NCBI GenBank assembly: GCA_965178125.1
Contig: OZ237755.1
Span: 434,001 to 498,000, forward strand
Source: Bilabrum cf. latius
Lineage: Eukaryota
DNA length: 64,000 nucleotides
Reading direction: 5' to 3'
Shown: in pieces, positions 21,085-63,865 of the stretch
Position numbering within the stretch: the stretch's first letter is position 1
How the letters are laid out: each line of letters opens with the position of its first letter
Program-made: the position numbers and the translations under genes
The notes under the pieces: model-generated
The model's input: the letters and a program-made list of their open reading frames with translations, nothing else
Databases searched by the model: none
What the model was told of the DNA's origin: nothing

Positions 21085-22778
21085 ATGGACCTTGATGAAA
21101 AATGTAGTAAGCGTATTATATACTCGAAGTCTAAGCGGAGTTAATGGAGTTGAATGCCTAGATTAGCGTGAGGCTGATCCTATCTTACTTCATCGCAGAT
21201 GAGAGGGATGTCGAGGCAGTAATGAAGAAGCTTAAGCAGCACTAGGCAAATAAGGTAAGATATGAATTCTATTTTACCGGTCATTCCCACGTGAGGCCTT
21301 CGTCCTGGAACCATGATTTCACCGGAACGTTCCTGAACTGTCTTCGCTGCGCAGACGTGCTTCGATTGCCCGGCCCGCAACCCAATCTGGGCCTCTGCAA
21401 CGTTTGGGGTATTTGTTTGTCTGGAATGCTCCGGATACCACCGTCGAATGGGTTCGCACATCTCATTTGTTCGCTCCACTGGGCTCGACAAGTGGAAGCG
21501 GAAGCACCTCATGACTATGTGCGTCGGAGGAAATGCGAACGCGAGAGACTTTTTCAAGGCGAAAGGCTTTGGAGACCTTAATTCGAAAGTGAGAGCCTAA
21601 TCCAAGCGCCACGCGTTAGATCTTGCCTAGGCACGGGCGCGTGCCTGCCTCCGGCATTGCTACAACCGAGCTCTCGCAAGCCTCCAAACCAGAAAAGCTC
21701 GCAGATTTAGACAAAGTACACTTCAAGAGTGGCTCAAATGTACAAACGTGAGATTGACGCAGCCGTCGCAAACGCTGCGGCAGCCGGCAAAGGACCTCTG
21801 GACCTGATCCGTCCCGCGGAGGCGAGCAAGTACGCAGCTGGCGCTGCCGCAGTCGCGAGCCAGAGGGGCGGGGCCTCTCTATCCATCGCAGCGGGCAGGG
21901 GAGGTTCAACCGCAGCCGCTGCAGGCAGCGATAGTCGCGCGTCGAGCCAGGGGGGCGACGGCGGCACGTCCTCCCCAGCTCCGCTGCTGTCTGCCTTTGG
22001 AGACGTGGGTGTCATGAGGGCCCAGATGGCCTAGGAAGCTGCCCGCAAACAGGCAGAGGCGCAGGCATCGGCGCCCAGGCTCGTCACGTCGGGGAACAAC
22101 GGCAGCTCCGCTGCGGGGGGGTCCTCCGGAGCCGCAGCGGATCCTGGCCGCGGGATCCTGTCGATGGCCGGAGCTGGTGCAGGGGCAGGGGCAGCTCCCT
22201 CCAGCAGCTCCGGGTTGGTCGGGGCGGGGGGGCTCTACCGCGCTTCGAACTCGAAGGGGACTGCTGCGCCAGCGCCCGCTCCTGCACCTGCGCCAGCCGC
22301 CAAGGCTGGTGGGGGCGGGGACGGAGGAGGAGGAGGCTGGGACGATGACTTTGGCGCTGACTTGGAGGTGGAGGCAGCCAAGGTGGCCAAATCGGCACCA
22401 AAGCGGGCGCCTGCCCCTGCTCCAGCGGCTGCTTCCGGCAGCCTGTACAGACCGTCAGTGGCCGGCGGCAGCATCGTCTCTTCCCCTGGTCGATCCGGCC
22501 GACGACCGGCGCCGGCAGCCGACAAGCACAACTCCGAGATGGCGGCACCCAAGGCGGCGGGCCGTGCCGGCTTCGGGGCCTTTGGTAGCATCGGGGGCAT
22601 CGGGGCCGCGAGCATCGGAACGGGCACTGGGGCTGCGAGCAAGTTCACGACAGGGAAGAAGGTCGTGAGCACTGCCGGCGTGGGTTCCCGAGTCACTGGA
22701 GGCGGCGGTGGGTCGAGCAGTGGAGGTGCTGGGGGGGGCAGCAGCGACGATTTCTTCGCGAGCATGGGCGTGATGTGA
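21085..22778 (+). CDS. ADP-ribosylation factor GTPase-activating protein (ArfGAP2/3, Glo3-like), ~461 aa
   Basis: Exons 21085-21106, 21199-21254, 21355-21588, 21705-22778. Zinc finger CFDC-x16-CLEC-x4-R, plus HISFVRSTGLDKW, GGNANARDFF and KYTSRVAQMYK. In-frame TAG at 21243, 21708 and 22032. TGA stop. The N-terminal domain is missing from the ORF track. Confidence 0.9.
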
Positions 22779-31600: not shown

Positions 31601-33414
31601 GGGAACGAGGGAGAGTATCCCTGCAGGTGCCAGCGATTGCTGGCGCCGAGCATCTGGACGCCATTCGTGGAATGGACGGAAGGTTCACAATTGGTGCTCA
31701 ATTCATGGCTTCATTTTTAGTAGACGGGGCATTGCGGCTGCTGCGCGTGCCGAGCGTGGCATCAGCGTAGACTCCGCTCGCTTCAGCTAGGAAAGGAACC
31801 AGCGCCCAGGTGGCGATGGAACCAGATGAGAGTAGCCCAGCTGACAGTGAGAGGCAGGCGGGCCCTGATTAGTCGTCGTCGTCTTCAGCTTCGGACGCTG
31901 AGAATGTGCGCAGTAAAGCAGAGGGTGATGTGATGCGGCACCGCTGGGAGCCCGCCTCGATGGAGAACGCAGCACGGCATGCCAGGGATCGCCCGTTCCA
32001 CGCTACCTCGGTGTTTGCACCTAGGAGCAGCTACCAAGCCAGGCTGTATCAGGTGCGATATTTTTTTGCCGAGCTTGTGCACCAGCTGACGCAAGGTGCG
32101 GACCCATTCGCCCTGTGCGACCGCTGGGGCTTGCCGCGAGGACTGCTGTCGAAGCTATGGCATGACCTGTCCACTAGCTCTCGATAGGTGCTGCAGGTTG
32201 CCAAGGGACTTGGATATGACTTGCTGCATGCCGCATTGAGTCGCATGAATGGCCGGCTAAGTAAAGGCGCGGTTGGGCCCCAGCTAACCTTGCTGCGGTA
32301 GCTCCCATCGCTGCGTCGGCACTTCGCTTCCTAGCTGGCCAAAGCTGGAATTAAGGATGCTGCTGGCGTGCTCGAGCAGCCCGTAGAGAAACTAGCAGAG
32401 ATTCTCCGGCGCGCGCTTCCTTACGCCTCTGCGGCAACGCCTGCTGCTGGCCCACCGGGAGTAGGCCAGTCAGTTTCCGGTGGCTAGTCAGCTGGGTGGA
32501 CTACCTCTGCCACCGCAGCTGCTACTTCGAGTAGTACTGCAGGAAGTTCTAACCGCAAAGCAGGTGGCGATGATGTCTCCCCCCAGACAGCAGGGGGTGA
32601 TGGGGCAGTTGTGTCTCGCGACACCGAGGGCCAGATGTGGGAGCAGCTAGTGCAGCTGGCGTGTATGCTGCAGACAGAAGCCAAGCAGTTTGCCAGCAGG
32701 CGAGCAAAGCTAGGCATAGATATGTCAGTTCACTACCAGGATGAAGACCCCGGGAGACGCCCGATGCCCGGTGGAGACTCCAGGGGCCAGGCACGGCCGG
32801 ATACGGGCAGTGGCAGAGATGTGGGTGCAGCGGTGGCAGACATGAATGCGGCGAGAGCTAGGTGGCTGGCAGCTCGCCAAAAACAGAACCCCACAGCTTC
32901 AAAGCAAGCCGAAGTTGCACAGCCGCTCACGGGTGCGGGTCCTAGCCAGGTTGCTCGCCCCGTCGAAGCACTTGCTCGGGGTTCTAGTTCCCGCGCTCCT
33001 TTGAATGCCTCCAGAATCGCCAAACAGGCTGGATTGGATGTGCTGCTGCATAGACTGACAAGTTTGCCCGTGGAATAGTCACATGGTGCTGCAAGAGTGG
33101 CAGCACCTCAGGGTAGTGCTCAGCACCCCGGGATGCAATCGAGCCAAAGCCACGGCACACCGGCCGGAGCTGTCCAGCCACCCATGGATGAAGATGGTGG
33201 CAGTGAGATTCGTGCATTGGAGGCAGGTAGACCGGCTACGGCGCGCGGCGCCAAGCGGCCCCGAGCATAGAGCCCGAGGGACTAGGGTGCGATGAGCCTG
33301 CAGTTTGGTGCGCCGGGCGCCGAGTCAGATGGCGCGGGGCCACTTGGCGCGGGTACCGAAGAAAGCATGAGCTCCATAGATCCGACTGAGCTGCTAGCTC
33401 TTCTAGATGACTGA
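28684..33414 (+). CDS. HELQ: HELQ / POLQ-helicase-like Ski2-family DExH helicase, ~1576 aa, no polymerase domain
   Basis: One frame, with fragments joined by TAG only. Motifs APTGAGKS, VVPFVALV[TAG]E, IVCTIERA, VVVDELHMVGDPRRG, I[TAG]IVGLSATMPN, RPVRLTEY, GVGVHNGEL, IATSTVSAGVNLPA, YLQMVGRAGRQG, then winged-helix and HhH-like segments. TGA at 33412-33414. Confidence 0.88.
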
Positions 33415-33663: not shown

Positions 33664-36147
33664 ATGCTCAACGTAGTTCATTACAACATGTGCCAGATGA
33701 CTGCAATTTCACTCGCATTGTTGTGGGCTTCTACAACTCAATGTAAATTAGTTCCCCGAATCGATGGTCTAGCATCCAGTAGTGTCTTAGCAGAAGTATG
33801 GCCAGGGAGCGTTCTGCAACAAGAGCATCACCCGTACCACCGCGTACAGCCGATAGTACTCTGCCATGATCCTCTATTTGGCGCACTAAAAGGAGATCGA
33901 CTAGCTGGCCCTCCAGATGATATACTGCCCAATTGCAGCTGGAGGCTCGGGGATCCTGATCCAAGTGGCGCGCCAAGCCCTGCGGTCCACTGTGTGCCTT
34001 CCGCTGGCCGTCGTTGGGTGTTTCACGACGTTTTTGCTCGAGACGGACAGCTGTTTGCCATTATGCCGAGCTATCTTCGGGTACCAGCCAGGTTGGATCA
34101 ACTGGCCATCGACGTGCGCATAGCTGGTCGACAAGGCGAACACAGCTTGAAGCACCGCGAATGGCAGGCGCTCCCCGATCCTGAGACTGTCAGAGCATCA
34201 AATAGGAATGAGCGCAGGATCAACGCTGTTCGTGTTTTGAGGTGGACTCTCCCCCGGAAATTTCGCTCGGAGCTCGGGAGCGGGTACCTGCACCTCCGCA
34301 TATAGTACGCATTCGAAACCACGTGGCTGCAGGTGTGGCACCAAGAGTTCTTGCCAAGGCGAAGCTCCACTTGGTCAGGCCCGAGTCCTAGTTCACGTGA
34401 GAATGGCTCACGAGGGCTACAGTCGTATTCGGTTCATGAATTGGACTGTGTGGAGTACCCGGGTTGGAACTGCATATGGCCACGCTTGTCACCATTAGGG
34501 AACGTGCATGGGAACGCGACAGCCACCACTAGCACACAAAGAGAGATGCAGAAGCAACAGCACACTGAACCTGGTCCGAAATCATTGCAAGCAAGCGGCC
34601 ACAAGCCCCATCGAATCATTGGCATGACAATGGTTCTACTTGAAGACAGAGAAAGATACATGTCTGACTGGGTGGAATACCACGGCGCTCGTGGGGTGGA
34701 GGCGGTAGTGGCATACAGAAACGACAACGAGTGGATTCAAGGCGCCTGTCTCGCGCTGTAGGCCGTTTCGTTTTATTGCAGCTCGCTACAGCCCAACACT
34801 GGGGCGGGAAACCAGGCAAGGACTGGCCAAGTCGGCTAGCCGAGCAGCCGAACCCTGTGTGACCGATTGCGGGGAGTCAAGCAGTGTCACCCCATGGCAC
34901 AGCAAATGAACGGATCTCCAACCACGGTGCTGGAGCTGTCATGGCCATTCCGTTCGTTCAATTCGTATGCTCATGACAAAGGCGCGTTCATTGGCGAATC
35001 CCAGCCGCACGCCCAGCAGCATTTCTTGTTCAAGTATGGCAAGCCTCTTTGCGAGTGGACACTTTATCTCGACGTGGATGAGTACCTGAACGTGTAGTCA
35101 TTACTAAGCCTCATTGAATAGGCAGACTAGAGGGCCCGCATGGCTAACAAGCTCTTGCCCGGCTCGATCGAGTTCCACAACAGATTTGCGGTGGCCTCGC
35201 TTGGGAGCGCGGTGTCGACTGAGTTCGAGACTTGCCCCCCAGAAAACCTTCTACTGAACCCGGCTATGCCAATGGCACGCGGTCTTGGCACACCTTGGGA
35301 TGCGCAAGTGCGATTAGGATTTCAAAATGCGGATCTGCGGATCGAATGGGTGTCAGCGACGGCACCACCTGCATCCCCCATGCACGCCGACCTGCGCACT
35401 AGGATCCTCGATGGAGCACGCACTCGAGGAAAAGCGAGGACATAGGACGCTTCTATGTAGCAGCATACGATCCTACATGAGCCTTTTGTGGCAAGCGCCA
35501 CGCTATCAGCAGCAAGCAACGATGGGGTGCAGATGGATCCGTCGATCGCCGCACCCAATGCCGGCAGATCTGATCGACGACTAGTTGCGGAGGGCTACAA
35601 GAGATCAAAGTACCTCGCCAGAACTGACCTGATGGTGTGGGCTGGCATGCATCACGCAGACTTTTGGGACGGTTCTAGTCCTGCCATGGAACAGTGGAGG
35701 GGCGGACACTTCGGTGCTGGCATATGCACCGCGAGCAGCGGGCTGCGCACGGAGCCTGGTGACGCAGTTGAGTGCCAAGGCGTGGGTGATAGCCTCAACG
35801 CTGCCAAGTTCACCCCAGCTGTGAATGCTATGGAACTGCAGGAAGAGGCTGTCATGCTGCATTTTCTGGAGCAGAGCACCCTGGCGAAATTCGCGCAGCA
35901 CGCCCTGAGCGCTCGCATGCCAATCTCCGAGCGCGCAAGCATCCATACCGGTACCCAGCCGATCAGCGAGCTGGATGGAATGGGCGCACTGCCTAGTCGT
36001 AATGTTTCTGGTTGTGAGAGGAGGGTCCGGCAGGCCCTGTTCCTTCGTGGGATGGACCCTGGATGGGGCTGGTCCGAGTCTAGCCCGCTGCAGATGCAGA
36101 CCATGCTCTGGCCTCCGACGCGGCCTGTCGCCGCGCTCGCGCCATGA
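33664..36147 (+). CDS. Glycosyltransferase family 92 / DUF23-like protein, ~827 aa
   Basis: Five same-frame fragments joined by TAG. Hydrophobic N-terminus, YMSDWVEYHGARGVEAVVAYRND, and a DxD motif in WTLYLDVDEYL. TGA stop. Confidence 0.7.
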
Positions 36148-36953: not shown

Positions 36954-37528
36954 TCACAACGGGAACTGTGCGTCGACACAGAACACGTTTGAGTTCTGGG
37001 AGCTTTCAGTCCCGATCATCGATACATTGTAGTTCCCACTGGGCACTGCAGACGGCAGGTTCAGCGCCAAGTGGATGTGCTCCGAGGCACTTGCAGTTGT
37101 TGGGCAACCAAGCCCCTCCACAGTGATGCTGCCGAACCCAAGCGGTAGCGTAATCTTTGAGGTGCCGCAAATGTTGCAAGAGTCAGAGTACAAGTTGACC
37201 CCATCAAGGGATACAGCAAGCTGGATCTTGCCTGCAGACACGACCTCGGTCATCGTACCGTTCGCATATAGGTTTGCTGGTTGGCCCTTGGCAGGAGCAG
37301 TTGGGGACAGGTTGAGACCTGTCAGCTTCATCCCACCACTACCACAATCGATAATAGTGGCTGCAGCTGGCGACTCCCCTCGGAGGTTGGCTGCCACTGC
37401 GTAGACTAGAGGAATGCTTGAAAGAATTGCAATTCTTTCCGGGCAACTCAGAGAGGAACACAGGGTCTTGGGCCAAACTTACTCGTAGAAGCCGCAAGCA
37501 GTAGCATAGATGCAGCAATGGCAATCAT
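36954..37528 (-). CDS. ML (MD-2-related lipid-recognition / NPC2-like) domain protein, ~162 aa
   Basis: Signal-peptide exon 37528-37483 (MIAIAASMLLLAAST), intron 37482-37397 (GTAAG...CGCAG), exon 37396-36954. Cys pattern DCG, NIC, GCP, FCV and LPSAVPSGNY fit ML domains. No internal TAG. TGA stop. Confidence 0.85.
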
Positions 37529-40700: not shown

Positions 40701-41318
40701 AGACGCCGGCCCACATCTGCATTGCCGACTTCAATAGGAGCGTACAGATCCAACCAGGCAACTCGCTAGATATTCTTGAAGATCGAGCGAGCCATGCGAA
40801 GGGCGGTAGACGACGCAAGGGCAGCAAGGGGGCGAATCGCAAGAAGCGGTGCGGGAAGCAGCACTGCGACACAAACACAGGCAGCATGCGACCAACAAGC
40901 AGATAAGGACGCGCGAAGTGGCCTGCAGCTGCGGCTTCCCAGGAATCTATAGCTGCTCGGCTTGAGATCGTGTGGGCTTGGACCCTCTGGCACAACAGCG
41001 ATTGCCTCCCTGCTCCGTGTCATTCCTAGTTTGACGCGACTGGACGTGTCTGATAATAACGCCACGGCCATGGGAGCCAGCATGCTGACAGCTGCAGCAC
41101 GATCCGCCGGAAAGAGCCTGACGATTTGCACCAAGGCGCTCATTCCCGGATATCCCGACAGTCTCGCCTCTGTGTTTAGCGAGGACCTCCCTGGAGAGCA
41201 GGCGGTGAGGCAGCGGAAGCTACTGGCAGAGAGGAGGGCGAAGAAGCGAGCAGCCGACGGGCTGGCAGGCAGCGCGGCTTCGCGCGGGTGCGGTGTCGGT
41301 GAATCCAAGGAAGGGTGA
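37725..41318 (+). CDS. Leucine-rich repeat (RNI-like) protein, ~1197 aa
   Basis: Continuous frame from ATG 37725 through TAG-separated fragments at 37902, 39228 and 40962. LRR motifs LRKLDASWC, LQELDVSYCRM, LRVLRATGCLL, IEEMHLAQNDF, L[TAG]LLGLRSCGL, LTRLDVSDNN. TGA stop. Confidence 0.8.
38556..38681 (+). repeat. (GGTGCW)~21 repeat encoding (Gly-Ala)21
   Basis: GGTGCT/GGTGCA units read directly, last unit GGTGCC. In frame in the LRR gene. Confidence 0.95.
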
Positions 41319-41417
41319 GGCTTCTGTAAATCTTACGCGGCAGATTGAGAGTATATATGGCTAGACTAGGTCTCAGCACGGTTGCAACACACACACACAC
41401 ACTAGCTTGCACATAGA

Positions 41418-44290
41418 TCATCGACCCATGCGAGCCAGTCGCATCCTGGCCTGCTCCCTCCTCCTGGCTCCAGGGGACACCACTGGCTCGCTGCTTCCGG
41501 TGTCTCCATCCCCTGCATCGCCGTCTGCTTGATCTCCGCTGCTGCCCCCGGCAATGGCGTGGCTCGGGCCTGCAAAGTAGTTCCGCTCTCCCGCAGCGGC
41601 CCCCTCCTCGCCGTCGTCTTCGGCCACCGCGCCCAGCATGCCAGACACGTCTTCCCCCGCCGCCTCTGCTTCTGCCATGCGTTGCGCCAGCTCGGCTCGC
41701 TGCCTCCCAATCGATGCCTGCCCCGTGAAGGCCCCTCGCAACCGCTTCCGCCTGCCACCCGGCGGGGCGAACTCCATGACTACCCCTTTGCCTCGGAGCT
41801 TCGTGTTGGCCTCGTCTGCCGCACCAGGGAACAATGATCTTTTCTGTCGCGTGGGTTGGCTAATCCCCTCTTCCTCCTCGTCGTCGTCCTCCTTGCCCTC
41901 GCCCTCGCCCGCTCCCGTCGCTGCCGATGGCGAGGTCGGTGTCGGACTGCCACCAGCTCCAAACCCTACATCTACGTTTCCGCTATCTTGCCCTACAACA
42001 GGCCCCCCCCTTCGTAGTATTTTACGATGGTGCGGGGACTGCACGATGGGAGACACTGGGCGCGGCGCCGAGCTCCCGGCGCTGTGGCCTTTGCCTTGGA
42101 ACGCGCTTGCTGCTGCCTGGGGAGGCTCGATTGGCTCCCCGCCCGTGACCGCACCTGTCTCCGGGTCCATGACGGGTATCCCTTCTGGCACGGAGCCGGC
42201 GTCCAGAGTGGCGTACAGCTTGGGTCTCGATCTCTGCGCGGAAAGGTCAGTGCCCCGCCTCTTCAACAGCTGTAGCCTCGCCCAATTGGGTGGCTCCACA
42301 CCTCCCCTGAGCTGCCCAGCGCCGATCACCGCCACTTGCTCCCGCACCTCGCTGGCTGCAGCCACCGCGCGGGCATTTGCTACAGCTAGGCGAGTATTTG
42401 AAGGTGCTACCTTCTTGCCCGTGGGCTTGGTCGACCCTGCAGCTGCGCTTGCTGCCCCTTGTGCAACAGCAGCTGCTGCAGCTGCTTCCGCCCGTGCCTT
42501 CGCTTCAGCTGCCTTGAAGTTTGCGGCTGCTTTCGCTTGTGCCTGAGCCTCTGCTTCGGCTAGCTCTCTTTCCTTGTCTCTTTTCTTCGCCGCTGCCATG
42601 CCACGAATCAAACCAAGTGCACCGCGACTGCCCGGCCGCTTCGCAGAGGATGGACGGCTTGCTGTCTTTTCAGGTGCGCTGGTGGACGGCTCCTCAGATC
42701 GTCTGCCTGCGCTTGCATCGGAACCAACTCGTGCAGAGGGGCCACGAGCAGCCTGCACAGGACTTGTCTGTAGTACCTTGGTACCACTAGCGCTTTCCGC
42801 GGGTCTATTCCCCTGCATCGGTGACATTCTCGGCTTGGATGGACCTGCCAACGTCGCTGCGACGGGAGCCGCTCCAGTCGGATGAGACGCCTCCGGGTCG
42901 GTGCCAGCCTCTCCAGCTAAAACCTCCTGCTGCTGCTGCTGCTGCTGCTATTCTGCGAGCCGCCTCGCCTCGATGGCTTGCATCCTCTTGAGCCTGGCTG
43001 CTGCTCTCGCCTCCCGGGAGGTGGCTGCAGCCGAGGACCCGCCCTCACCTGCACCAGAGGCAGCGCTAGCCCCCGTAGGTGAGCCACCAAGCCGACGAGC
43101 GCGGCCTGCCATCACAGGAGCAGGCGTATCGGCTTCAATAGCGGCCGCAGGAGTGGTATCCACAGCTGAGGCAGCGGTGCCGTCGCCGGCTGCAGCCCCT
43201 GAGGCATCATCAGCCGCAGTCATGCCCATGCCCATGCCCATATCCATCCCCAGCACGCCTCCACTTGCCCCCGCTGCAGCTTCTTCTTCCATGTCCTTGG
43301 GAGGCGCAAAGTCCACCTCCAGGTCCAGATCGCCGTACAGAGACACGCTGTCTGCTGGCTTGAGCTCCAGCACATCCAGCTTGTACCGCTCTCCTGCCGC
43401 CTCTACCAGCACTGTGCGGCCAGTTGATAGCGTGGAATAGTGCTTCATGGCCTGCTCCATGAGCTCTCTGGGGCCAAAGGCTGCAGCGAGGTCGATAAAG
43501 GCGGTCTTGTGAGGCCGGAAGCGAGCAAACTCGCCCTTGGGCGGATTCTTGGCTGACACCACGTGGATCCTTCCGCCCTCTTTGAGCCGAAGGGCTGGGA
43601 ACATCCATGAAGGCAAAAATGCCGTGCCTACCGGAGCTGAGAACTCAGTGACGCCGCAGTACAGCTTACTCTTGGCTGGCTGCTTTGGAGGCGGTCGGGG
43701 CGCGCCGGGGCCATCGCGCTTCGAGCCGCCGGCAGCACCAGCTCCCTTCGAGCCACGGCCACGACCAGATCCATCCGACTTGCCTCTACCTCGCCCGCTT
43801 TTTCGGGAAATGCCCGCTGCTCGCCTTGTCGCAACTCGAGACCCCGAAATCGCACCGAACGTGGATCGAACTGGTGCTCTGTCTGCCGTGTCGGCTGCGA
43901 CCTTAGCTCGCCACTGCCTTTCTGACTGTATTTCAAATAGAAGGGGGAATGGCAGCCTGAGCCGTTTGATCTCCTTCAAGACTTCCTGCGGATCCAAAGT
44001 AGTCGGAAGGCGTCAAGTGAAGCTCCATGATGGCCCGCAACGACAGGCCAACGAGGCATTGCATGGTCTCACTGTGGGCAAAATAATCTTGTCGCTAGCT
44101 GACATGGCATCCTTTCCTGCAAGACCGATGAACAATGGAATGGATTCGAAAAGAGTCTTGCTGAGCATAGGCATTGCATATCTACACTGGTGCTGTCGAT
44201 CTTACGAGCAGATTTCAGGGATCTAGCAATAAATTGGGCCTCATACTTCCCTTTCCCGGAGCCAAATCCGGGATACAATCTTGACGACAT
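41418..44290 (-). CDS. UFD1: Ubiquitin fusion degradation UFD1-like protein with long disordered C-terminal extension, ~898 aa
   Basis: Exons 44290-44206, 44116-44073, 43985-41418. UFD1 motifs DKIILP, LPFPLLFEI, YCGVTEFSAPVGTAFLPSWM, PKGEFARFRP, HYSTLSTG, VLELKPADSVSL, DLEVDFAPP. TAG at 42948 heads a (CAG)7 run and joins the 41418-42851 ORF. TGA stop. Confidence 0.85.
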
Positions 44291-44453: not shown

Positions 44454-46619
44454 TCATGCTACAGCTAACGCGACGCATGTGCGCACATCGTCTCCCACCC
44501 GCCTGACCAGCTCCGCTCCAGCCGCTCCACCGCGTGTCGCGGATGATGCACACGCGCTAGAGATGGCCGCCTCCACTCTGGCCTCCAGCTCTACCAGTCG
44601 TTCTTCCGTTGGTGCCACCACAAACATGCTCGCATGCGATCCTCGCACGAAGCTAAACGGCATCGCCCCACTAGGGATGCCCTCTGCAGTTGAAGCAGAT
44701 GCAGAGGGCAGCGAAAGCAGCGCCCCGCTGCTTCGAAGCGACTCAAGGAGCCCCTCGAGACCACCTACGGCAGTTCCCGCAGCCTTGCTCTTGAAAAAGC
44801 GGAAGTATCGCGCGCCCCCGCATCGCAACGAGGCGAAGATCTTCGCCGGCTGACCGCCGTTCGGACGACCAGAGTTCACGTCCGTGAGTGCAGGCCGCCC
44901 CGACTTGGCATCCACCAGGAAATCCAAGCCCCAGAATCCCTTAAGACCTACAGAGTCCCTGAACGCCGCAGCGATCTCGTCACACCGCCTGAGCATGGCA
45001 CTGTCGTACCTCGCTACAGCGGGGGACCGGTTTCCTCCGAACACGCATCCCTTGTGGATGATCTGCTCGGCGGCCTCACCGCACTCTTGCTGACCCACAT
45101 AGTGCATCACTGGGGACACCACCCCATCCTCTGCGTCAACGGCCAGGTCCATCATCGCTTCCAACGACACCACGTCCCCGCTCGCGCAGCTGCCGCTGTC
45201 GAAGACGTAGCTCTCGAGATGCTCCCGCTTGACGTCAAACACAATCCCATCGCCCGAGGAGGCACCGTCAGACGGCTTCAGCACCACCCGTGCCACGCCC
45301 TCCACCTAAGTGAGCCGATCGTACGCAGCTAGCAGCTCGGCTGTCGTGGCGCACCTGTATCCAAGCGGGACATCTACGCCTCTCACGATGCCCGGCAGGT
45401 CCGAAAAGCAGGCTGGCATCGGCCTGGGCTTCTCGTCCACATGTGGCACCAGGCTTGTTGCGTCACTGGGCAGGATGCCAGCCTCTACCGCAGCGTCTTG
45501 CCAAGTCCCCGCGCTCAGGCACGCCGCTCCGATCGCCGCTGTAGGGCCGGTGCTGCTGCTGTCCATATCAGCCGCAGGCGTTGGAAATTCATCTGAAGCG
45601 GCACCGGCCACGGATACCTCGGACGCATCCGCCTCGGTCCTTGGCTGTGAGTCCGCTGATGAAGGTTCAGCGCACCCGGGGGCGGATACGACCGTGGTTG
45701 CTTCCGCACACGATGGACCGGTCACCACGCTCTGTCTGGAATCTAGGGCAGCAGGCAGCGAAGCTGCCGACACGGCTGCTCTGGGCGGAAGATCCATGGG
45801 CGGCTGCGGGTGAAGCCAGGCCTTCTGCACCACGCCTTCCCAGCCGTCACCAAACAGGCGGAGAGGCAGCGATTTGAAGGCGTGAGCCAGCTCCTCTGTG
45901 ACAAACATAGGGCACAGCACGGACATGTTGCTCTCTACGTCCGCATTATTTGCTTCCTCGACGGCGGGGCAACCAGAGCCGTCGCCACTTGCTGGGTGAG
46001 GTTGATGCGTCTCGACCACGTGGATCGGTGCCGCCGTCCTAGCCATCTCGCTATGGATGGAGTCGTTGCAGCCGGGAGCAAGCTAAAACAAGGCCTTACT
46101 TGGCTATGCGATGTCCTCCATGCGGCATGCTAGAGCCCGCGCTGCGCCCGCATGCCGCGTTTCTCCGGCGGGAACACCCGTCCGAGCGCTTTCCGAGTCG
46201 GCTGCCGGGATCATCTCACTCCTGTAAAACACGGCCTGGTCCGCTTCCAACCCGAGGACAATCCTCAGGTGGTCCCAGGACTCGCGGCAAAGGCGATGAT
46301 CGGGAAGCAGGATTCGGTCAACCCCTGGCCGGACCAAAGCAAGTGGCCGCAGACCACGATCAATCGTATCAGCCACGCTCTTGAAGACACGCGGGAACCA
46401 GTAGAAAATAATCTTGGGCTGCGAGATAGAAAGAAAAGGACGCCATGTCTGGGACTGTGATAGGCAACGTTGTGGCCACATGTCCGGCAGAAATGCCAGG
46501 CAACAGCACTCTGCCCAGCAGACACGTGACTGCTTGCAGGAGCTCGATCTCACCGTTGCGATTCCACGCATCGAGGTATCACAAGCTTCGAAAGCATGAT
46601 AGCTTGAACTTGCGGCCAT
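44454..46619 (-). CDS. ATP-grasp-fold protein of unknown function, ~676-721 aa
   Basis: Three same-frame ORFs joined across TAG at 46104, 46083 and 45306. Motifs VVLKPSDGASSGDGIVF, SLEAMMD, EQII...FGGN, GLKGFWGLDFLV, LTDVNSGRPNG. Probable in-frame intron 46553-46419 (GTGAG...CGCAG). TGA stop. Confidence 0.7.
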
Positions 46620-46856
46620 AATTCACCTTGAGTTGATACTGACAGTTTGGTTGTGTCATTTTGCTGCCACATCACACCTTGGTTCTGCTGATCTTCTCTC
46701 TTCTGTGAACGCTTCCGCCGACGAACCTAGGCTTTACGACTCCGAGTTGTTGCGACCAAGTCCACGATTTGATTGGTTGCAACCGTTTGCCTTTCTGACG
46801 GTTGATTCCCACTAGACCGTCAGGGTTTTCTTATTACTCGGCACAGGTTTTTGCAT

Positions 46857-52800: not shown

Positions 52801-54383
52801 CAACTGGGGCTGCGGTACAGGTTCAACACCCAAGTGCAATACAGGGAGGCAGCTCCTCCCCAAGCAGGGGTGCCACGTACCCTGATGCAGGTGCTGATGT
52901 GGCGCGAAGGCAGCAGGCACGGAGACTAGCGATGTCATTGCGTGAGTGGCAGCAGCAGGTATCCCAGCTCGACGCGCGGTACCTGAGCTAGCTACGTCGA
53001 TGCAGGCAAATCAACGACGCCGTGGCTGTACTGGCTGGCACTCTGTGCCTGTTGCAGAATGAGCCGCCCAGCTGGAGGAATGCACAGAGTCTCCTTCACA
53101 GGGCAGGCATTCGGGCAGCGCTCGTGGACATTCACCCCGACGAGATCTCTGACAAGACTCGAGGAATCGTCTCGAAGCTCATCGAGACCAAGAACGTTCG
53201 AAAGTACCTGAGGGACCCGGACCAGTGCGACCCCCAGACCAAGCGGGCTGAGTACGTGCTGATTTCCTGGAGCATAGCCCTGATCGATGCTGCGGAATGG
53301 ATCTCGCTGGACCCTGCCAATCTGCACACTTGGCGAGAGATCGAGGACGAAGGAGTGGCCGGTCACCTTCACGCAGAGGGGATTCACGGCGCGCCACAAG
53401 CCGCAGGCGGCGGGGCTCCGGTCGAGCAATCCAGCAGCGGCTCGGAGCGATTGCGAATCCGTGACGTGACTGCGAGATCATCGCAAGCTTCCGAACGCTC
53501 CAGCGCGCATTCGGCTCGAATGAGTGGAGCAGGCGGAAGCCCAAAGAAGCTCAAGGATGTCGCGCCGATCGGCACAGAGCCAGCGATTCACAGGCGAGTG
53601 GTGTCAGCACCTACTGAAGAAGACAACCCAACCGTGATGGTGAGGCGAGGTGGCGTGGAGATTGCGGTACCCGCTGATGGGGGGCCCCATGGAGCTGCAA
53701 GCCCAGGGCGAGGGTCCGGTATCCAGCCTCACACCGGCTCAGGGTCTGCAAGCCGAGGCGGGTTGAACGGTAGCGAGGAGGGATCCGTGCAGACACCACC
53801 GCGCGGGCGATCCATGTCACGCGGGGACAGGGTGGCAGGCGGGTCTGGTGAGGTACCTGCAGCCTCGGGGGCGGGTGCAGCGGGTGCACCTGCGCTTGTG
53901 CCAAAGGTGCCTCGGCTACCGCCAGCCGATGCTATGCGCGAGTTTCAGCAAGGGTACTTGGTTCGGAAATATGATGCTGGTGGATGGTCCATCTTCGGCA
54001 ACAAGGTGAAGCCGCGGCTGCTGTGGCTCGACCGTTCGCCTGCAGTGACTCGAGTGTGCTGGACGAAGCCGGAAGCAAGCATAGCTGAGATTGCGGATGA
54101 CATCGGTAAGCAAAGGCAGGTCCTGAAACAGTCTGGGGGCCGTGGGTTCAGCAAACCGGCCGAGCCCGACACAGCGATCAAGCAGTCCCACGTGGCGAAG
54201 CTGACGCTCGGTAGAACCACTGAGCTCTTAAAAACTCAGGCACCGGAAGCAGACGAGCCCCTCTGCTTCAGCATTCACACGAGGGAGCGCTCGTTTGACT
54301 TTAGGGCGCCAACACAGGCGCAGCGTGATCACATCGTGAGCTGCATCAGTACGGTGGTGGGCTGCCCCGTGGCGGCCACATGA
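46857..54383 (+). CDS. Very large coiled-coil protein with C-terminal PH domain, ~2508 aa
   Basis: Eleven ORF fragments (47001 to 53022) in one frame separated by TAG only. Coiled-coil stretches at about 47500-49200 and 49930-50460. PH-like C-terminus GYLVRKY...KPRLLWLD...VCWTK...LGRTTELL...LCFSIHTRERSFDFRA. ATG 46857 follows an upstream in-frame TGA. TGA stop. Confidence 0.8.
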
Positions 54384-54466
54384 TCCTGGAGCGTAGGCCA
54401 ATTCTGCTGCTTGTGCGTACATCTGGTCTGTTCATTCAACACGCCCCTCATCCATTTGGAGCCAGT

Positions 54467-57400
54467 TCACACCATCTCCACTTCTCGGCGTTCACCGCCC
54501 TCGTCCTGCTCGCCACCCGTTCGTCCTGTGGCTTTTGACTCATGGGAGCCCTAGACCTAGCCCTGCGGACTGGTGGCATCGTCAGCGCCGCCCTCCTCCG
54601 CATCATCATCCTCCTCCTCGACGAGAATCGGCCCGGGGCCGATCGTCGCTAGAAGCACAGGCAGCACAAACACAGCGTGCAGCAGCCCAAGGATGATTAC
54701 TGCTCCAAGAAGCTGGGCAAACACCTCAAATATGTACGAGCTGGCGCCAGCATACAGCAGTGCCAGTCCCAGCAGTGAGCTGAGTCCACCTTGGAAGACT
54801 GGCCGCCCCATGTTTTTCAGTGCCGAAATCGCGCGCTCGTGCCGCATAGTGCCCCCGAAGCAAGGCTCGTCCTGCCAGCGCAGTGCCACGCTCTTCTGTC
54901 CCGCAATAGACCCCGCGTCGGCGTGCTTGTGCTTGCCACCACTCGCCAGGAAGGCGTGGGTCACGTGTGCCACAGCATCAACGGACAGTCCGATGGCCAG
55001 CACCAAGTTGATACTGCTGATGGAGTTCAGCTTGATGTTGACTGCATACATGAATCCAAACAGCATGACTAGCACAGATGCAAGCGCTAGCACAACGATG
55101 CCAATTGCGTTCAGCCTGGGCAGGAGCACTGCAGCCACGCAGAGGATAGCGGCGACTGCCAGGAAGACGGTCTGCAGGGTCGAAGGGACGATGATTGCAA
55201 ACTGTTCAAAGAATACAAGCTGCTCGAGCGAAAGTACGATCGAGTCCGCGTTGATATTTTCGCCGCTTTCTCGTTGGATCCGCTTGGACTCCTCCTCTAG
55301 GGTCTTGCGCAGCGAGATCATCGCGTCTGCTTGTTCCTGGGAGCCATCCAGCGTACGCGAGCGGACCGTCATCAAGGTGCCCGCAATTTCGATCTCAGTG
55401 CCGGCTTGAATGGCAGCGACTACCTGCGGGGTGTCTGCACCTGGTTTGTAGATATCACCGCTGGAGGGATCCCGGAACGAGATCGAGTCAGCGACCCTTC
55501 CGCTTGCAGCGGGGTTGGACAGGAATGCGGCGAGGTGGCCTCGCAGGGCGGCAGCATCGAAATTCTCCGTGGATAGACCGGTCTGTAAGCCCTCCAAGAA
55601 CTGATGAAAGGGCCCAATCCATATTGTATCGGAGCTCTCCGCGAAATCGTCTGCTGCCACATAGGCAGGCCCAAGTGAAGCCATGGCCGAGCGCACGGCA
55701 GCGAGGCCGTAGTCCACGTGGTCGCTCTAGCCCGGGCTGGGGTTGGGAGCCACCACGTCGAACGGAATACCAAGATTGTAGAACTCAATCTGCGCGTCCT
55801 AAGCATCGATGAAGAAGTGACCGTTGGGAGCGAGCAGCTGGAGGTCGAGCCCTTGTTCGACGTGCACGAAGCCGTAGATGGAACCGCCGAGCATGGCAAG
55901 CCACAGCACAAACACGACTACTTTCCCGGGGGTAGAAAGCACCAAAGGGCCAAGAAACTCTGCAAATGCTAGATCCCACCAGGCACCCACGTAATTCTCG
56001 TCCGTCTTGCCAGAGGTGCCTACCGTCGAGCTTGGATGCTGGGTGACCGAGGCAGCGCTACTCTCGCCCGCCCCATCACCTGAACCATGTTTCGAGGCAC
56101 TCTCAGCAATAACTTGAGCTTGATCTGCATCAAAAGACACAGGAGCCGACGCCCTTGGCTCCGTACTGCCTGCAGGGAGGGCGCCATTGCTGGCAGCCTT
56201 GCCATTCACCTCTGTCGTCTCGCTGGCTGGAACACTTGCAGCGACCCCTTGAGCATTTGACTTGTTAGGCCCGCCAGGCGACTTGGCCGCGGGGTCTTGC
56301 GCCGGAGCGGATTTGGCGCCGTCCTCTGTCGGCGAATCGTAGCCGCTGCCTGCCTCGTCTTGTGCCGACTCCACCGGTTGGCAGGTGATGCTAGACAGCC
56401 CAGCCTCCTCCCTCCTGGCGTCAAGGACCATCAAAGGGGCGAAGACGAGCAGCATGCTAAAATAAGCAAAGAATAAGCACGCCGCCGTGAAGGCACAGAA
56501 TATCCTGACAGAGTTGAACGGAGAAATGCCACCAAGCCCGAACGCAAGAACGTCGGTAGTCGTCGTCAATGTGATGGCAACGCTGCGATACGATTTAAAC
56601 AGAGCAATACGAAAATACTGTAGCGTAAATATGGGATCAATACAAGCCCATTACAGCTCTACAGGGCACAGAATGAAGCAGAAATGCGAGCAATACGTGG
56701 CAGCAAGGCAAGTGCATTGGCGAAGCCGAGCTCACCCAGCATCTCTCAGCGTCTCCCGCATCCTGACCTCGGCGCTGTGCCAGGAAGGGGTGCGCAAGTA
56801 CGTGGCAGTCAGCACGAGCGCATTATCAATGCCGAGTGCTAGCAACAAGAACGGCGACACCCCGACGATAGACACGAACGGCAGGCCGGCAAAGGAGCAA
56901 ATGCCGAACCCCGCAGGGATGGCTATCGCAGTGGCAAGCACGCCGCCCTGCGCCAGGATGCTCTTGTTCCTGACAGGATCGGGAGAGAAGGAAAGGATCG
57001 ACACCAGCACGCACAGCATGACGAATGTCAGAGATATGAAGAGGAAATCGCCAGATGTGCTCGCCTCAAGCGCGTCGTCAACGGCTCGTCCCGAGTCCCG
57101 GGTCATGATGTACCCGTCGGGGAACGTCCCATCCCTCCTGGCCTTATCCTCCCACGCCTCCAGCCCATCTGTGAATGCGAGCTCCCATGCGCTCACCAGC
57201 TCTTCTGTGACCTCATCATCGCGGTCGTAACTGAGCCTGTAGGTCGCGCGGAGCGCCTCTGCACCCACCGCCACCTGCCCGTTCTGGCTGAGAACAGGGT
57301 CACCCAGCCTGGTCGGAACCAGGATTCCAGACCCAGTCGATGGATCTATGCACACTGGAAAAGAGAGCGGTACCGATTCGTTCGGTACAAACATCTGGTC

Positions 57401-57892: not shown

Positions 57893-58173
57893 CGTATGCG
57901 CGGCAAAACTAAATTCCGCTGGAGATGCACTGCTGGGGTAACCCCGGCTTTCAATCCAATCTACGCGGAACCGGGCGGTATATTAACTAAATTACAACAA
58001 TTTTAGCAGCAAAAATTATTCAATGGAAACGCAGTTCGTATGCTCTAGCCATTGATTGTGATCCGCTAGTCATATACCAGTTCCATTGGCAGATTTCTGC
58101 ACGGTACAATAGCTATCCGGCAGCAGGATGAGAAAATGGGTATAGACGCACAAGACTAGCCTAGGAGCCGGTC

Positions 58174-59840
58174 ATGAAGTCTTCTATTGCTATGGCGTGC
58201 ATTGGGGCATCTATTGCGCTGGCAGCGTCGTATCCTCCGGCACCTGCAAGCTGCACAGGCACCCCGAACACTATCCCCGTGGATACCTCAACGCCAACCT
58301 TCGTGTCCAGAGCTGGCAATGGCACTCGGTGGTCCATTCAACCTGCTGGTATGAAGGTACCTCTCAACGTGTTTCACTTGTCAGGAACACCGGCCGAGAT
58401 GGGGAAGGTGAGACAACTCTGCTAATCATTTTGACGCAGCTGCAGGCACTGCATTAAACTCCGCACGGGCGTACTTTCCGTGCCATCGATAGACTGGAGC
58501 ATGGTAATCTCACTGTGCTGATGCAACGGCAGATCATTCTGAATCTCGCATCCGTCTCCCCAAAGTCGTTGTTTGGCGATCCGAGTTCCCGCAGTCTTAC
58601 GCCATGCTTGCCAGGCAGGAGATGCTCAAGATTGTGCCCGAGTTTTACGATTATGTTGACGGAGAGATCGCACAGTACTTGGAATGGCTGCCGCCCGCGG
58701 TTCGCAAGGCTGTGGAGCAGTGGGGTATTTCAGCTGGTGAGGCCAAGACCTTAGATCTAGGCCTTTTGGCAAGAACGGCACCTGTCGAACTCATGTATTT
58801 GCAGCATTATCTGTTTCGCCGGGCCAAGCAATGCACCGGTGTTTGTTTTGCACACGTATTTCCTCGCAGCCCTCAACATCACCCTGGACGCCACCCGGGA
58901 GTTCATCCCCGACCGCTTCTTCGAGATGGCCCACGCCATCGAGGACGAAGTCGGCTTCCCGCGGGACCACGTCCTCAAGCTGTCCCTGTTCCCTGAGCTC
59001 ATCAAGATGGGCTGCTCCATGTTCGGCGCGTGGAACGACGCGTCCGCGGACGGCACGGGCCTCCTCCAGCTGAGGGCACTGGACTGGGACTCGGACTCGC
59101 CTGCGCAGCAGTTCCCTGCAGTCATCAACTTCCACCCCTCCGGTGACGGGAACGTCACCGAGCACTCGTACAGCGTCGTGGGCTGGGTCGGTCTCCTGGG
59201 TGCCGTCTCAGGGTATTCCTCCGCCGGCATGGCTTTGTCAGAGAAGGTGTGGCTGTCGTACGACGGCCTGGAGAACATCGTTGGGGTGCCCACCACTTTC
59301 CTGCTCGAGGATATCCTGAGGCATGACCTCGACACAGACCAGTCCCTGGCACGGATCGCCAGCGCCAACCGCACCTGCTCCATCTTTATCGGCCTTGGCG
59401 ACGAGTACAACAACGAGTTTAAGGTGATCGAGTACGGCTATGAGCACGTCAACATCTGGAACTGGAGGACCTGCCCCACGTGGGAGAACCACGACCGCTT
59501 CACGGACCTCGTGTTCGTCGACAAGCACGTGTAGCCCTCGACGCACCCCTGCCTCAACGACCTCATGCACCAGCTGTACGGTGACCTGGACGCGGCCGCC
59601 ACCGTGTACGTCACCTCCCTCTTTGAGACAGGTGACACCCACATCGCCATCTACGACTTCGAGGCGAAGGAGATGTACGTCTCCAACGCAGCTCCAACCA
59701 ACGCCTCCGCGATTGCGGCCACCTTGGGCGATGAGGCGGCTGCCAAGGCCCTCAAGGATAACAAGGCGTACAACCAGCCGTTCGTGAGGTTCGACATGAA
59801 CTGGATGTGGAACGCCTCCCTGGCCACCGTGCAGGGCTGA
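58174..59840 (+). CDS. Acid-ceramidase-like Ntn-hydrolase (Dictyostelium dcd1-like), secreted/lysosomal, ~448 aa
   Basis: Exons 58174-58407, 58595-58736, 58870-59840. Signal peptide MKSSIAMACIGASIALA, HLSGTPAEMGKSY, PELIKMGCSMFGAW (candidate nucleophile Cys), LQLRALDW, SGYSSAGMALSEK, RTCSIFIGLGD, DKHV[TAG]PS. TGA stop. Confidence 0.8.
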
Positions 59841-60088
59841 GCTCGACGCCATTCATGGGTGCCATGGTGGCAAGATCGGTGCTTGATTTATTCATGATGT
59901 GAAAGCCAGCTCGGCTGGACCAGCCAGCCTGAGGATAGCTGTCGAAATTGGGAGCTCTCCTGATGCGGTGGTCGGGCCCTGCGCAAAGCTCAAAATGTGC
60001 ATGCATGATGCTTTGACGCGTAGCAGATTCTGTTTCGTTCAATATATTCTGTCGTAAAGCTCCCAGCCAGCCCCACTCATCGCTGTCG

Positions 60089-63000
60089 TTAGCGTCGCGA
60101 ACCGGGGTCGGCATCCTGCTTTGCCTAGGCTGCAGCAGCTGCCAGCCGCGCCCGCGCCTCAGCCAGCATGGAAGCACTTCCACCCTAGAAGTCGGAACCA
60201 GCTGCCGCGCTGCTTCTGCCAGTCGTATCCATGCCATGCTCCGCACCACGAGGGCCCGACGAGTTGCCGCGACCGGTGCTCCCACCACCTTGGCGCTCCG
60301 GAACAGCAGCGAGAGCAGACCGTCCGACTGCAGACCTGCCCCTATCGCCATACGCCGACTCGAATTCGTCCCTGCGCTAGTACTACTGGTGCTACCGAGC
60401 CGAATCGCCCCCATCTACCCCGCTAGCCAGGCCTCGTAATGCAGCAGCCGCGGATGAGACGTCATCCCGTCTCTGATGAACGCCTGCTGAGCGACCTCTT
60501 TCGTCGTGAATCATGCCGTCGTCCTGCCCGGCTCGGTCTAGTCGATCCAAGACAGATCGCGGGACAATCTAGGACTCCGACAGGCTGCCGGCAGATGCAA
60601 CGCTGCTCGCAGTCGATGCTTGCGAGGGCACTCGGTGTCTCAGCTCGTCCGCACGCGCGTGCTGCTGGCTATCCTGCGGCTCTGACCTTCGGCATGCGGG
60701 CGATGGCCCGCGTGGGGGCAATCCGCCAGCCGCACCGGCAGTCCCAAGACCGGTTGTGCCAGGCCCGGCGCCCTTGCCGTACCCTCTGCTGCTACCGTCT
60801 TGCTCCCCCCAGCCTGCGCCGTCTGTCATGTCTTGCTCTGTGAAGGAAGTCTCGTACTGAGTGGAATCAACCCTAGTTACGTCTTGACTTCGCTGGTGCG
60901 CATCATCTCCACGGGTAGATCTATCATTCGCGAGTCCAGCACCCTCGGCAGGCGGCTCCCGCCCACGTTGGGGCGCCCACGAGCTAGAACGCGTAGCCTT
61001 TCTATCTTGCGACCTCTGAGTTTCTACCAAGGAGCGCTGCAGCAGCTGCTTGTTAGCATCGGCGAGCTGCTGCACTGCCCTCTTGAGCTGGCTCTTTTCC
61101 GCTTCAGAGCGCGCCAGGCGAGCGTTAAGCACCTCCTGTGGCACAGCGGGAGGCTCAGCCTCCCGCACCAGGCTGGTTCTCAAAGCCGACCGCGATTGGG
61201 CGGGTGCATGGGCCGTGGCACCCTCGCTAGCATCTCTTGCAAACGATTCCTCCACATTGTTGTAGAGTCCCGGCTCGCCGCCTGCGCCAGCCGTTGCGTC
61301 CAGCCGAGATTGCAGCTCACTTGCGTCAACAGCCGCTGCCTGTGCCTGCCGCTTGACCAGCAGGAGGCGCTTTGAGGCAAGAACGATCCTCTCCTCTGCG
61401 CGCACTCTCCTGGCTCGATGCTCGTCACAGGTCTGGGAGAGCGAATCCAGGTACTTCTGTGCCCTATCCACGGCTTTGGCAACGGACTCAGGAAGCGCAA
61501 CACCGCTATGAGAGCCGCCTATGGCCGACCGCAGTCGTGGAGCGCCCGATCGGGACGCGCCGCCGCCATCGCTATCACCGTCACTGAAGGCAGCCGACTC
61601 CCCAATCCTCTATCCCTTGCCCCTTGAGCTCGATACTCCTCCGCTGCCTTCGCGGTACTCCTCCTCCTAATCGTCATCGTCGTCGTACTCGTCTTCTCCA
61701 CCAAGCTAGAACCTCCGCTTGAGCCGCAATCCAGGGGTACCCCCAGATCTGCGCTTTGTCGTCCTTCGCCTCGATGAACTAAGACCGGCACCTTTGCCAG
61801 CGGGTACCCCACCTTCGCCATCGCTGTCGCTGCCGATGCTGCTTGCAGTCCCTCCAACCGCGCGGCGGAGCCTGCTACCGCTGGCCGGGTACGCTTCCGA
61901 CCTAGATACACCTGCCGCCCACTCGGCGCACTCTCTCAGCAAAGCCTCTGCCTTTCGACGCATGCCCGACCAGTCATCATGTTCCCTAGATACCCGCTCG
62001 CGCAGCGTCTTCTTCAAATCACTTTCCAGCGCGTTCAGCCGTCTCGAGTACTCGAGCGCCTTTGACTGCCGCACCGCTCGAATGGCCTCATCCATGTCGC
62101 CCACGACGGCGGCTCGCAGCGTTTCCAGTTGATTTCGGCCCTCCTCCTCCGCGTCCCTCTCGTGTTCTTCCAGCACTCGCTGTCTGGTACTATCGAGTGA
62201 GCTTCGTAGAGCTTCCATGGCACGCGCCGTCTCAGCGTCGATGCGAGCGCTTGCTGCTGCTTTGGCTGCTTCCAGCCGCTCCTGACCCCTCTGCCTCTCT
62301 GCCTCCAGTTCTGCCTCCCTATCTCTGGACATTCTAACCTCTAGTGCCTCAATTTCAGCTGCCTACGCCCGCTTGAGCGCCTCCTGCAGCTCCCTGAGGT
62401 CGTCGTCCTTCCGCCGAGTGAGCTCTGCCTCGGCCTCCTTCACAGCGTCCTGGTGCTGCGCCTCCAAGGCAGCGCGAAGCTCCACCGCAGCAGCCTCCCG
62501 CTCCTACGTCAGGCGATCCGCGATGTCCTTGCGCCTCCCCGCGAGCCGGTCCTCGCTCTGCCTCATGGCCTCGGCTGCCAGCGACTCAGCTGCCTGGGTG
62601 TGTTCCTGCCTCGCCCGGTCCTCCAGCTCCGATTCCGCCCTGGCGGCAGCCGCCTCCAGCGCCCTCCTCGCGTCCGCCATGCGCTGCTCATGCTCCTGCC
62701 TCAGCTGTTCCCTGAGCGAACCCAGCCTCTCGTCGTTCTCTCTCTCGCATGCAGTCCTCAAGTCCCTCACGGCCTCCTCGAACCTGAGCTCGGCCTCTTC
62801 CCGCAGACGTGCCTCCGCCCTCTGGCCCCTGCTGCGGTGGCTGTCCTCTATGCGCTACAGTGCAGTGTCTTTGTCTTCCACCAGCTGCTGCGCCACTGCA
62901 TCCAGCCTCGCCTCCCTTTGCTTCTCCCCCTCGATCGCCACCATGGTCAGCAGCCGCTCCGACTGCTCCCGCGCCTGTTCCCTGAGGGCCTCTTCCCCTG

Positions 63001-63865
63001 CCAGCGCGTCCTGCTCCTGTCGCTGGAGCAGCTGTTCGGTCCATTCGCCCGCCTGCCTTGCGGCGTCCGCGGCTGCTTTGGCCATGCGGTCGACAGCCTG
63101 CGCCGTGGGCCCGCGAGCGGCTGCGTCCATTCGCTCCGCGACCTCTGTGCCCAGCAGGGTCTCGATCCTGCGCCGCAGGGCGGTTAGTTGTTCCCTGGAT
63201 TGATCTGCCAGGACATGAGCCCTGTGGCTGGCATCGTTCTGCACTTGTTCCCTGAAGGCATCGAGGACGGCTGCGTGTCCTGTCGGCATCACGGCGAGCT
63301 GGCCCGCACCCGCAGCACTTGCTCCGACAGAGCCACTGGTTCCGCCAGGATGCAACAAGCTCCCGTTTCGTACGCTCTACAGCGTCCGTTCAAAGTCCTG
63401 TTCCGCTTCTCGCACCGCCTTGGGTCTCGTATGGTACGCGTCAGGGTCACGCGTATGCCTCGTCGGCGATGCCTTCGTGCGACCAGATGACATTGTTCGG
63501 CGGCTGCGCGAAGGTGCAGATGACTGTGATGAAACAACTTTTGTAACCTGCTACGGGTTCCTATCGAGGCCCTTTGCCTTTCCAGGCGGGATCCACGCAG
63601 GAGGCGGTTGAGGGTTTCTCCTCTGCTCGGGACCCGAAGCTGATGATCGGGTTCGTCCATTTTGCGATGCAGAGCCAATACTTGCAACTGTTTCGTGATT
63701 TGATCCAGCACCGTGCGGGAGGGGCAGCGTCGGAGCTGGAGGCATCGGTCGGGCTGGTGAGATGGGACCAATTCCGGACAACCCGGTAGCCTCCGCAGCG
63801 CTATCCCTGTGATCGGCTGTCAGGCGCGCAAGCTACCGCAGAAAGCTTGAATCCTGAAATTCCAT
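60089..63865 (-). CDS. Hypothetical coiled-coil protein, ~1258 aa
   Basis: ATG 63865 in AAAAG-ATG context. Fragments ending 63551, 62855, 62504, 61706 and 60569 are in one frame joined by TAG. E/R/A/Q-rich helical middle. The first non-TAG stop is TAA at 60089-60091, with TGA four codons later at 60077. Confidence 0.75.

Follow-up and report, generated by a model that had tools for sequence, protein, structure and literature searches.

How can a nuclear genetic code give up UAG as a stop codon and keep UAA, and what becomes of UAA afterwards? The question is raised by a 64-kb stretch of DNA from Bilabrum cf. latius (contig OZ237755.1, positions 434,001 to 498,000; "the window" below means this whole stretch), in which TAG is common inside long open reading frames (ORFs), nearly every gene ends in TGA, and a single in-frame TAA closes a gene on the minus strand at 60089..60091. 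Few eukaryotic lineages are known in which UAG has changed its meaning and UAA has not (PMC5304391, PMC11687900), and such a case is a natural test of whether the release factor eRF1 is able to lose UAG by itself or is prone to lose the two UAR codons (UAA and UAG) together. It is relevant, too, to the question whether a nuclear code can leave a stop codon without assignment and to the part that GC pressure plays in shaping code change. On balance, we favor a UAG-only glutamine code in which UAA is retained as a rarely used stop that GC pressure has nearly cleared from gene ends.

TAG as a glutamine codon

Under the standard stop codons, the window (59.7% G+C) holds only short ORFs. Taking TAG as sense yields ORFs of 373 to 3,069 codons, which lie on both strands and are separated by short spacers. 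The 17 ORFs counted comprise 18,912 codons, among which are 165 TAG, 252 CAA, and 588 CAG codons and neither a TAA nor a TGA in frame, so that TAG has a 16% share among glutamine codons. The proteins encoded are eukaryotic by domain content, which includes an SNF2/SHPRH-like helicase, a POLQ-like helicase, UFD1 N-domains, a Patched sterol-sensing domain, ankyrin repeats, an APE1-like nuclease, and an ML/NPC2-like domain. Contigs from the public runs X6, X7, and X8 map to the window minus short GT..AG pieces, and the DNA run X1 spans the same 20 kb without a break. We classed X6 to X8 as RNA-type solely from these intron-free contigs. The contigs have their introns removed, and the genes of the window are therefore transcribed and spliced; the window is nuclear DNA of a GC-rich, intron-poor eukaryote. 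A recoded phage, bacterium, or giant virus as the source was rejected on the strength of the spliceosomal introns, of genes such as Patched, UFD1, SHPRH-like, and NPC2-like, and of the spliced RNA contigs.

Homologues that align across the in-frame TAGs point to the amino acid. In a gene on the plus strand that resembles dcd1 and acid ceramidase, the TAG at 59532..59534 faces glutamine in 95 of the 98 homologues aligned there (100 matches). The TAG at 29512..29514 (plus strand) lies in the ...IxIVGLSAT motif of the POLQ-like helicase, opposite a glutamine of human POLQ, and 12 of 13 aligned matches have glutamine at this place; of the 128 aligned letters listed for the TAG at 29011-29013, 55 are glutamine. 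In the Patched gene, the TAGs sit in variable loops and are uninformative on the amino acid.

A relative is present in two metagenome contigs, L001 (1-11251) and L002 (1-4485), which keep the gene order of the window (a large gene, a Patched-like gene, and a dcd1-like gene) at identities of 87% for the dcd1-like protein, 69% for Patched exon 2, and 38% for the large gene. L001 has 55% GC, and its 2,801 codons include 32 TAG, 53 CAA, 67 CAG, and no TAA. In alignments of the orthologues, the codon opposite a TAG of either species is CAG in 10 cases, CAA in 3, and TAG in 4, and no other codon is seen more than twice. Taken together, these comparisons show that TAG is a glutamine codon in the nuclear code, as in NCBI table 15, and that L001 has the same code as the window, in a lineage with at least two divergent members. 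Scans of genome contigs and viral contigs with the dcd1 alignment found nothing. A separate observation concerns P0124, a protein from another public assembly, which is 98% identical to the dcd1-like protein, has an unbroken ORF of 406 residues, and carries glutamine at the position of the TAG at 59532-59534. Its source strain probably has CAG or CAA at that codon, and TAG and CAR codons (CAA and CAG) would then swap among close relatives.

Two other accounts of the TAGs were rejected. RNA editing of TAG is excluded, since the RNA-type contigs match the letters of the window (over 20 kb, the sole mismatch is 60154 G>A, in X6), and TAG is therefore not edited away. An ambiguous code of the Condylostoma or Blastocrithidia type, in which a codon is both stop and sense, was set aside because TAG ends no gene in this small sample and the end checked by homology, at 59840, is TGA. 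No ORF end requires TAG as a terminator, all 17 ends in this small sample being TGA or TAA.

TAA is not a sense codon

The ORFs were redrawn with TGA as the sole stop, and the count of TAA codons inside them is thus not circular. In long ORFs drawn in this way, in-frame TAAs lie only at the 5' edges (upstream of the start), in introns, or at 60091. If TAA and TAG stood in the same proportion as CAA and CAG, the window should contain about 71 in-frame TAAs and L001 about 25. None was observed in either, that is, 0 in 21,713 in-frame codons for the two combined. TAA is clearly not a glutamine codon, and its internal absence is far beyond chance. The in-frame counts of 165 TAG against 0 TAA show that in this lineage UAG is uncoupled from UAA, and the relative shows the same with 32 against 0. 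An earlier, sequence-only reading had proposed both the uncoupling and, from CAA being common, that UAA is not a glutamine codon, and the counts bear it out on both. Its statement that UAA is nearly absent holds for the reading frames and fails for the DNA overall, in which 97 TAA triplets are present in 9,442 non-coding positions.

These counts also make it quite improbable that UAA is read as glutamine as well, in a full UAR = Gln code of the NCBI table 6 type in which UAA is almost unused and the gene with the lone TAA ends at the TGA at 60077. Such a code would confine termination to UGA, as table 6 organisms do, and it would suit the position of the lone TAA, which is in frame just 5' of a TGA and whose read-through would add a tail, RQR, that extends an Arg/Gln-rich end. 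Against it stands the absence of TAA from all 18,912 + 2,801 codons, in genes in which CAA makes up 30% (window) and 44% (L001) of CAR codons.

UGA ends genes

Sixteen of the 17 gene ends in the window are TGA and one is TAA. The 16 TGA coordinates given by the sequence-only reading are all in-frame TGA ends of long ORFs opened by reading TAG as sense. Since most introns in the window open with GTGAG, the TGA ends were checked as possible splice donors. The RNA-supported introns number six (87-187 nucleotides [nt]; 56583-56735, ~58408-58594, ~58737-58869, 46419-46553, ~43984-44070, and ~44115-44203), with a GTGAG donor in five and a (C/T)GCAG acceptor in all six. In-frame TGA and TAA triplets within intron donors can pass for stop codons. 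The 153-nt GT..AG intron at 56583..56735 (minus strand) contains both, an in-frame TGA in its GTGAG donor (56732-56734) and an in-frame TAA.

RNA-type contigs stop 35-205 nt past the TGAs at 41318, 44454, 54467, and 59840, and they are unspliced through those at 41318 and 54467. The TGA of the dcd1-like gene, at 59838..59840 on the plus strand (exons 58227-58405, ~58594-58736, and ~58870-59840), is followed by RNA contig ends at 60042/60044, and 81 of 100 dcd1 homologues end at most 5 residues from it. The Patched gene, with its sterol-sensing domain, ends on the minus strand at 54467..54469 (exons 57982-56736 and 56582-54467), where an X7 contig starts at 54427; its orthologue in L001 also ends in TGA. 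On the plus strand, the 2,510-codon gene at 46851-54383, which contains 20 TAGs, ends at 54381..54383, and its L001 orthologue has a TGA two codons earlier. The TGA at 44454..44456 (minus strand) is passed by RNA contigs that reach 44402 (X6) and 44419 (X8), and the UFD1-domain gene ends at 41418..41420 (minus strand) in a region covered by an X6 contig (41369-43984). The stop at 41316..41318 (plus strand) has a donor-like context, GGG TGA GGC, and is nevertheless unspliced, as a continuous X6 contig covers 41201 to 41373. UGA ends genes in the window.

The remaining TGA ends are placed by the ends of their ORFs. On the plus strand they are 36145..36147, 33412..33414 (the POLQ-like helicase gene, with 17 TAGs), 28517..28519, 22776..22778, and 16650..16652; on the minus strand they are 22990..22992 (the ankyrin-repeat gene), 16756..16758, and 13224..13226 (the APE1-like nuclease gene). 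The gene for a secreted ML-domain (NPC2-like) protein of 162 residues ends at 36954..36956 (minus strand). An in-frame TAA in this gene, at 37479-37481, lies inside the GTAAGT donor of a seventh intron, of 86 nt (~37397-37482, with a CGCAG acceptor), which is predicted from sequence alone.

The last TGA end, at 13025..13027 on the plus strand, has the donor-like context AAG/GTGAGC. Within 13020-13045 it falls in two tandem donor-like sites (AAG/GTGAGC and TAG/GTGAGC), with an acceptor-like CACAGCAG at 13186-13193, and the gene may have a short alternative last exon.

We give hardly any weight to an explanation of the whole pattern as artefact, in which the TAA is an assembly error, the TGA ends are GTGAG splice donors, or the TAGs are edited in RNA. 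That five of the six introns open with GTGAG, which contains TGA, and that the end at 13027 has such a context speak for it. Against it, the TGAs at 41318 and 54467 lie in contigs that show no splicing there, the hypothetical spliced form at 13027 would also end in TGA, the contigs and the window are nearly identical in their letters, and two runs agree on the letters around the TAA, as described next.

A single TAA end with a TGA behind it

In-frame TAA stands at just one gene end, at 60089..60091 (minus strand), where it closes a 1,258-codon ORF, 60092..63865 (minus strand), which encodes a coiled-coil, low-complexity protein without a Pfam family and contains 15 in-frame TAGs. The 3' end of this gene reads ...GGT TCG CGA CGC TAA CGA CAG CGA TGA, the TGA at 60077..60079 (minus strand) standing four codons after the TAA as either a back-up stop or an older stop. 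The letters at 60077-60091 are identical in the DNA run X1 and in a spliced X6 contig, and no joint lies across the site. The TAA is therefore neither intronic nor an assembly error, and the latter is excluded as its origin. The sequence-only reading had spelled out the site correctly, from 60091 to 60077. It had also warned that one TAA with a back-up TGA cannot tell a rare stop from an unassigned codon, and with the TGA at +4 and a sample of 17 genes, we agree.

The runs X7 and X8 do not cover 60544-61200. The one letter at which the RNA-type contigs depart from the window lies inside this gene, at 60154, which is A in X6 and G in the window and X1; it is a strain or allele difference. For the C-terminus of the protein, metagenome contigs gave 596 pattern matches, none of which was confirmed, and none of the 8,000 scored candidates from a protein collection (shorter lengths, residues 900-1258) reached an E value of <= 0.001. 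No homologue of the C-terminus was found, and homology is therefore silent on where the protein ends.

In the UAG-only code that we favor, UAG would be decoded by a tRNA-Gln with the anticodon CUA, which would be unable to pair with UAA. Recognition of UAG by eRF1 would have been lost, UGA would still be recognized, and so would UAA, though less importantly. We infer the tRNA-Gln(CUA) and the altered eRF1 by analogy with known codes of this kind (PMC5304391). GC pressure would convert TAA either to TGA, a silent change, or to TAG, with read-through to the next TGA, and nothing would replenish TAA. On this model, TAA is rare at gene ends because the first change has no effect and the second merely extends the protein. 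The TAA at 60089-60091 would most simply have arisen not long ago by a nonsense mutation in a glutamine codon, either TAG or CAA, that stood four codons ahead of an older TGA. It would trim QRQR from a low-complexity tail and be harmless whether termination at it is efficient or leaky.

Rare stop or unassigned codon

Whether a stop codon that is still recognized could be this rare depends on what base composition predicts. Taken as a whole, the window's non-coding DNA (4,755 nt, 51% GC) has a TAA/(TAA+TGA) ratio of 0.40, and with this null the probability of at most 1 TAA among 17 ends is P = 0.002. For the 3' flanks, with 60-150 nt counted from the stops onward, a TAA share of 0.19-0.28 corresponds to P = 0.13 to 0.03; under this null, TAA as a stop fits the composition. 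Across eukaryotes, TAA use drops and TGA use climbs with GC content at third codon positions (PMC9348620). The under-use of TAA as a stop, measured on 17 genes, is suggestive. The dominance of TGA described by the sequence-only reading is thus real as a count of ends, and it is only modestly above local base composition (P from 0.002 to 0.13, depending on the null).

The use of UAA as a stop in every published UAG-only lineage (PMC5304391; PMC11687900) argues for its retention here. Several observations weigh against it. The P value of 0.002 under the whole non-coding null is one. Another is that the sole TAA end has a TGA at +4, for which the chance is ~0.06, and that no gene in the window relies on TAA alone; in the 16 other genes, the 9 codons after the end hold no second stop. 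In these TGA-ended genes, the second in-frame stop is never closer than +10, and in 7 of them there is none within 30 codons. TAA has been termed the universally optimal stop (PMC9348620), and its near-absence here is at odds with that. All UAG-only lineages in the two reports consulted prefer TAA (PMC5304391; PMC11687900), again the reverse of what the window has. Finally, the tRNA and eRF1 steps of the model are inferred, with no match to tRNA genes or Rfam families in the window, L001, or L002 and no eRF1 gene in the window.

The main alternative, the bolder of the two options of the sequence-only reading, is that UAA is effectively unassigned, which we consider a possible but distinctly less probable explanation. 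In that case, eRF1 would be specific for UGA, as it is in ciliates with glutamine at both UAR codons, and only a tRNA-Gln(CUA) would have been gained. UAA would have neither efficient termination nor a cognate tRNA, would be purged from gene ends, and would survive only where a TGA follows at once, and the code would be a lasting halfway stage from the standard one to UAR = Gln. A slightly more tentative version specifies the route: UAA would have been lost under GC pressure by codon capture, with no ambiguous stage. The deficit of TAA ends (1 of 17 against a non-coding share of 0.40), the TGA directly behind the only TAA, and the reversal of the stop preference found in all published UAG-only lineages (PMC5304391, PMC11687900) support an unassigned UAA. 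So does L001, where the ends orthologous to window genes are TGA in 3 of 3 cases at a lower GC content (55%). Against it, the argument rests on 17 genes and on one site, with a P value of only 0.03 to 0.13 under the 3'-flank null; GC pressure by itself lowers TAA use (PMC9348620); a literature search found no precedent for it; and the eRF1 gene and the tRNA set lie outside the window. Retention of UAA as a rare stop thus remains the reading that we favor.

Comparison with known codes

The first reports of UAG parting from UAA date from 2017 and concern a rhizarian in which UAG is leucine and Iotanema, in which it is glutamine; UAA is the dominant stop in both (PMC5304391). Later UAG-only cases are Scotinosphaera (serine), Protocruzia, and phyllopharyngean ciliates (glutamine or leucine) (PMC11687900). 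Like Iotanema spirale (Fornicata), for which a tRNA-Gln(CUA) is predicted, the window has UAG alone read as glutamine and UAA outside the sense codons (PMC5304391; PMC9161772). Unlike Iotanema, in which UAA is the primary stop and UGA a stop as well, the window is 60% GC and uses TGA at 16 of 17 ends and TAA at one at most (PMC5304391). The eRF1 of Iotanema has a T32G change in the GTS motif (PMC5304391); relatives of Iotanema have the standard code and a standard GTS motif (PMC9161772).

In its assignments, as far as these are supported, the window resembles the ciliates Hartmannula sinica, Trochilia petrani, and Protocruzia tuzeti and NCBI table 15, where TAG is glutamine and neither TAA nor TGA is sense (PMC11687900). 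It differs from these ciliates in stop usage, since UAA makes up 86.9-98.3% of their stops and UGA the smallest share, an order that is reversed here (PMC11687900). Its ordinary-sized genes, GT..AG introns, and large contig are also unlike the AT-rich DNA of ciliates. With rhizarian exLh (leucine), Scotinosphaera (serine), and phyllopharyngean metagenome-assembled genomes (leucine), the window shares the uncoupling of UAG from UAA and differs in that UAG is read as glutamine and UAA is not the dominant stop (PMC5304391; PMC11687900). The table 6 codes of Tetrahymena-type ciliates, hexamitin diplomonads, some ulvophytes, and Amoeboaphelidium protococcarum resemble the window in having UAG as glutamine and termination nearly all at UGA (PMC5304391, PMC6299283); for Amoeboaphelidium, glutamine is the cited meaning of TAG and TAA alike (PMC6299283). 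They differ from it in that their UAA is glutamine, a codon absent here from 21,713 in-frame positions. No GC-rich eukaryote with UAG as glutamine and UGA as the main stop was found in a literature search that had subscription journals outside its coverage. The uncoupling of UAG from UAA is thus known, and the reversed stop preference, TGA over TAA, in a GC-rich lineage is new. A practical consequence is that gene callers set to the standard code would shatter these genes at each TAG.

Other features of the window

The best named homologues share just 38-47% identity with the proteins of the window, and a search of PDB with the SNF2-type protein had no match at 1e-8. The gene at 3-9209 (minus strand) runs off the window and has its 3' end outside it. 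TAGs in this gene lie in or beside glutamine runs, at residues ~791-796 and 910-911 (..EXQQQSX.. and ..RARXXQT..), the pattern that CAG-to-TAG transitions in CAG tracts would be expected to leave.

Convergent genes end 83-237 nt apart in three places (54383-54467, 59840-60077, and 41318-41418). Single X6 contigs span convergent pairs (46823-58045 and 58274-61164), so that the 3' untranslated regions abut or overlap. A search 3' of the stops for TGTAA and AAUAAA-type signals gave only 2 TGTAA in 2,550 positions.

Long (Gly-Ala)n and (Gly-Ser)n dipeptide repeats are encoded at 37725-41318 (plus strand), 26009-28519 (plus strand), and 16759-21018 (minus strand), and a 1,420-residue repeat protein contains a duplicated 22-residue unit, DANDDEETSSQLANTRKAPRRK. 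The ML-domain (NPC2-like) gene at 36954-37528 (minus strand) and the Patched/NPC1-like gene at 54467-57982 (minus strand) are separated by 17 kb, and their products may be partners in sterol handling.

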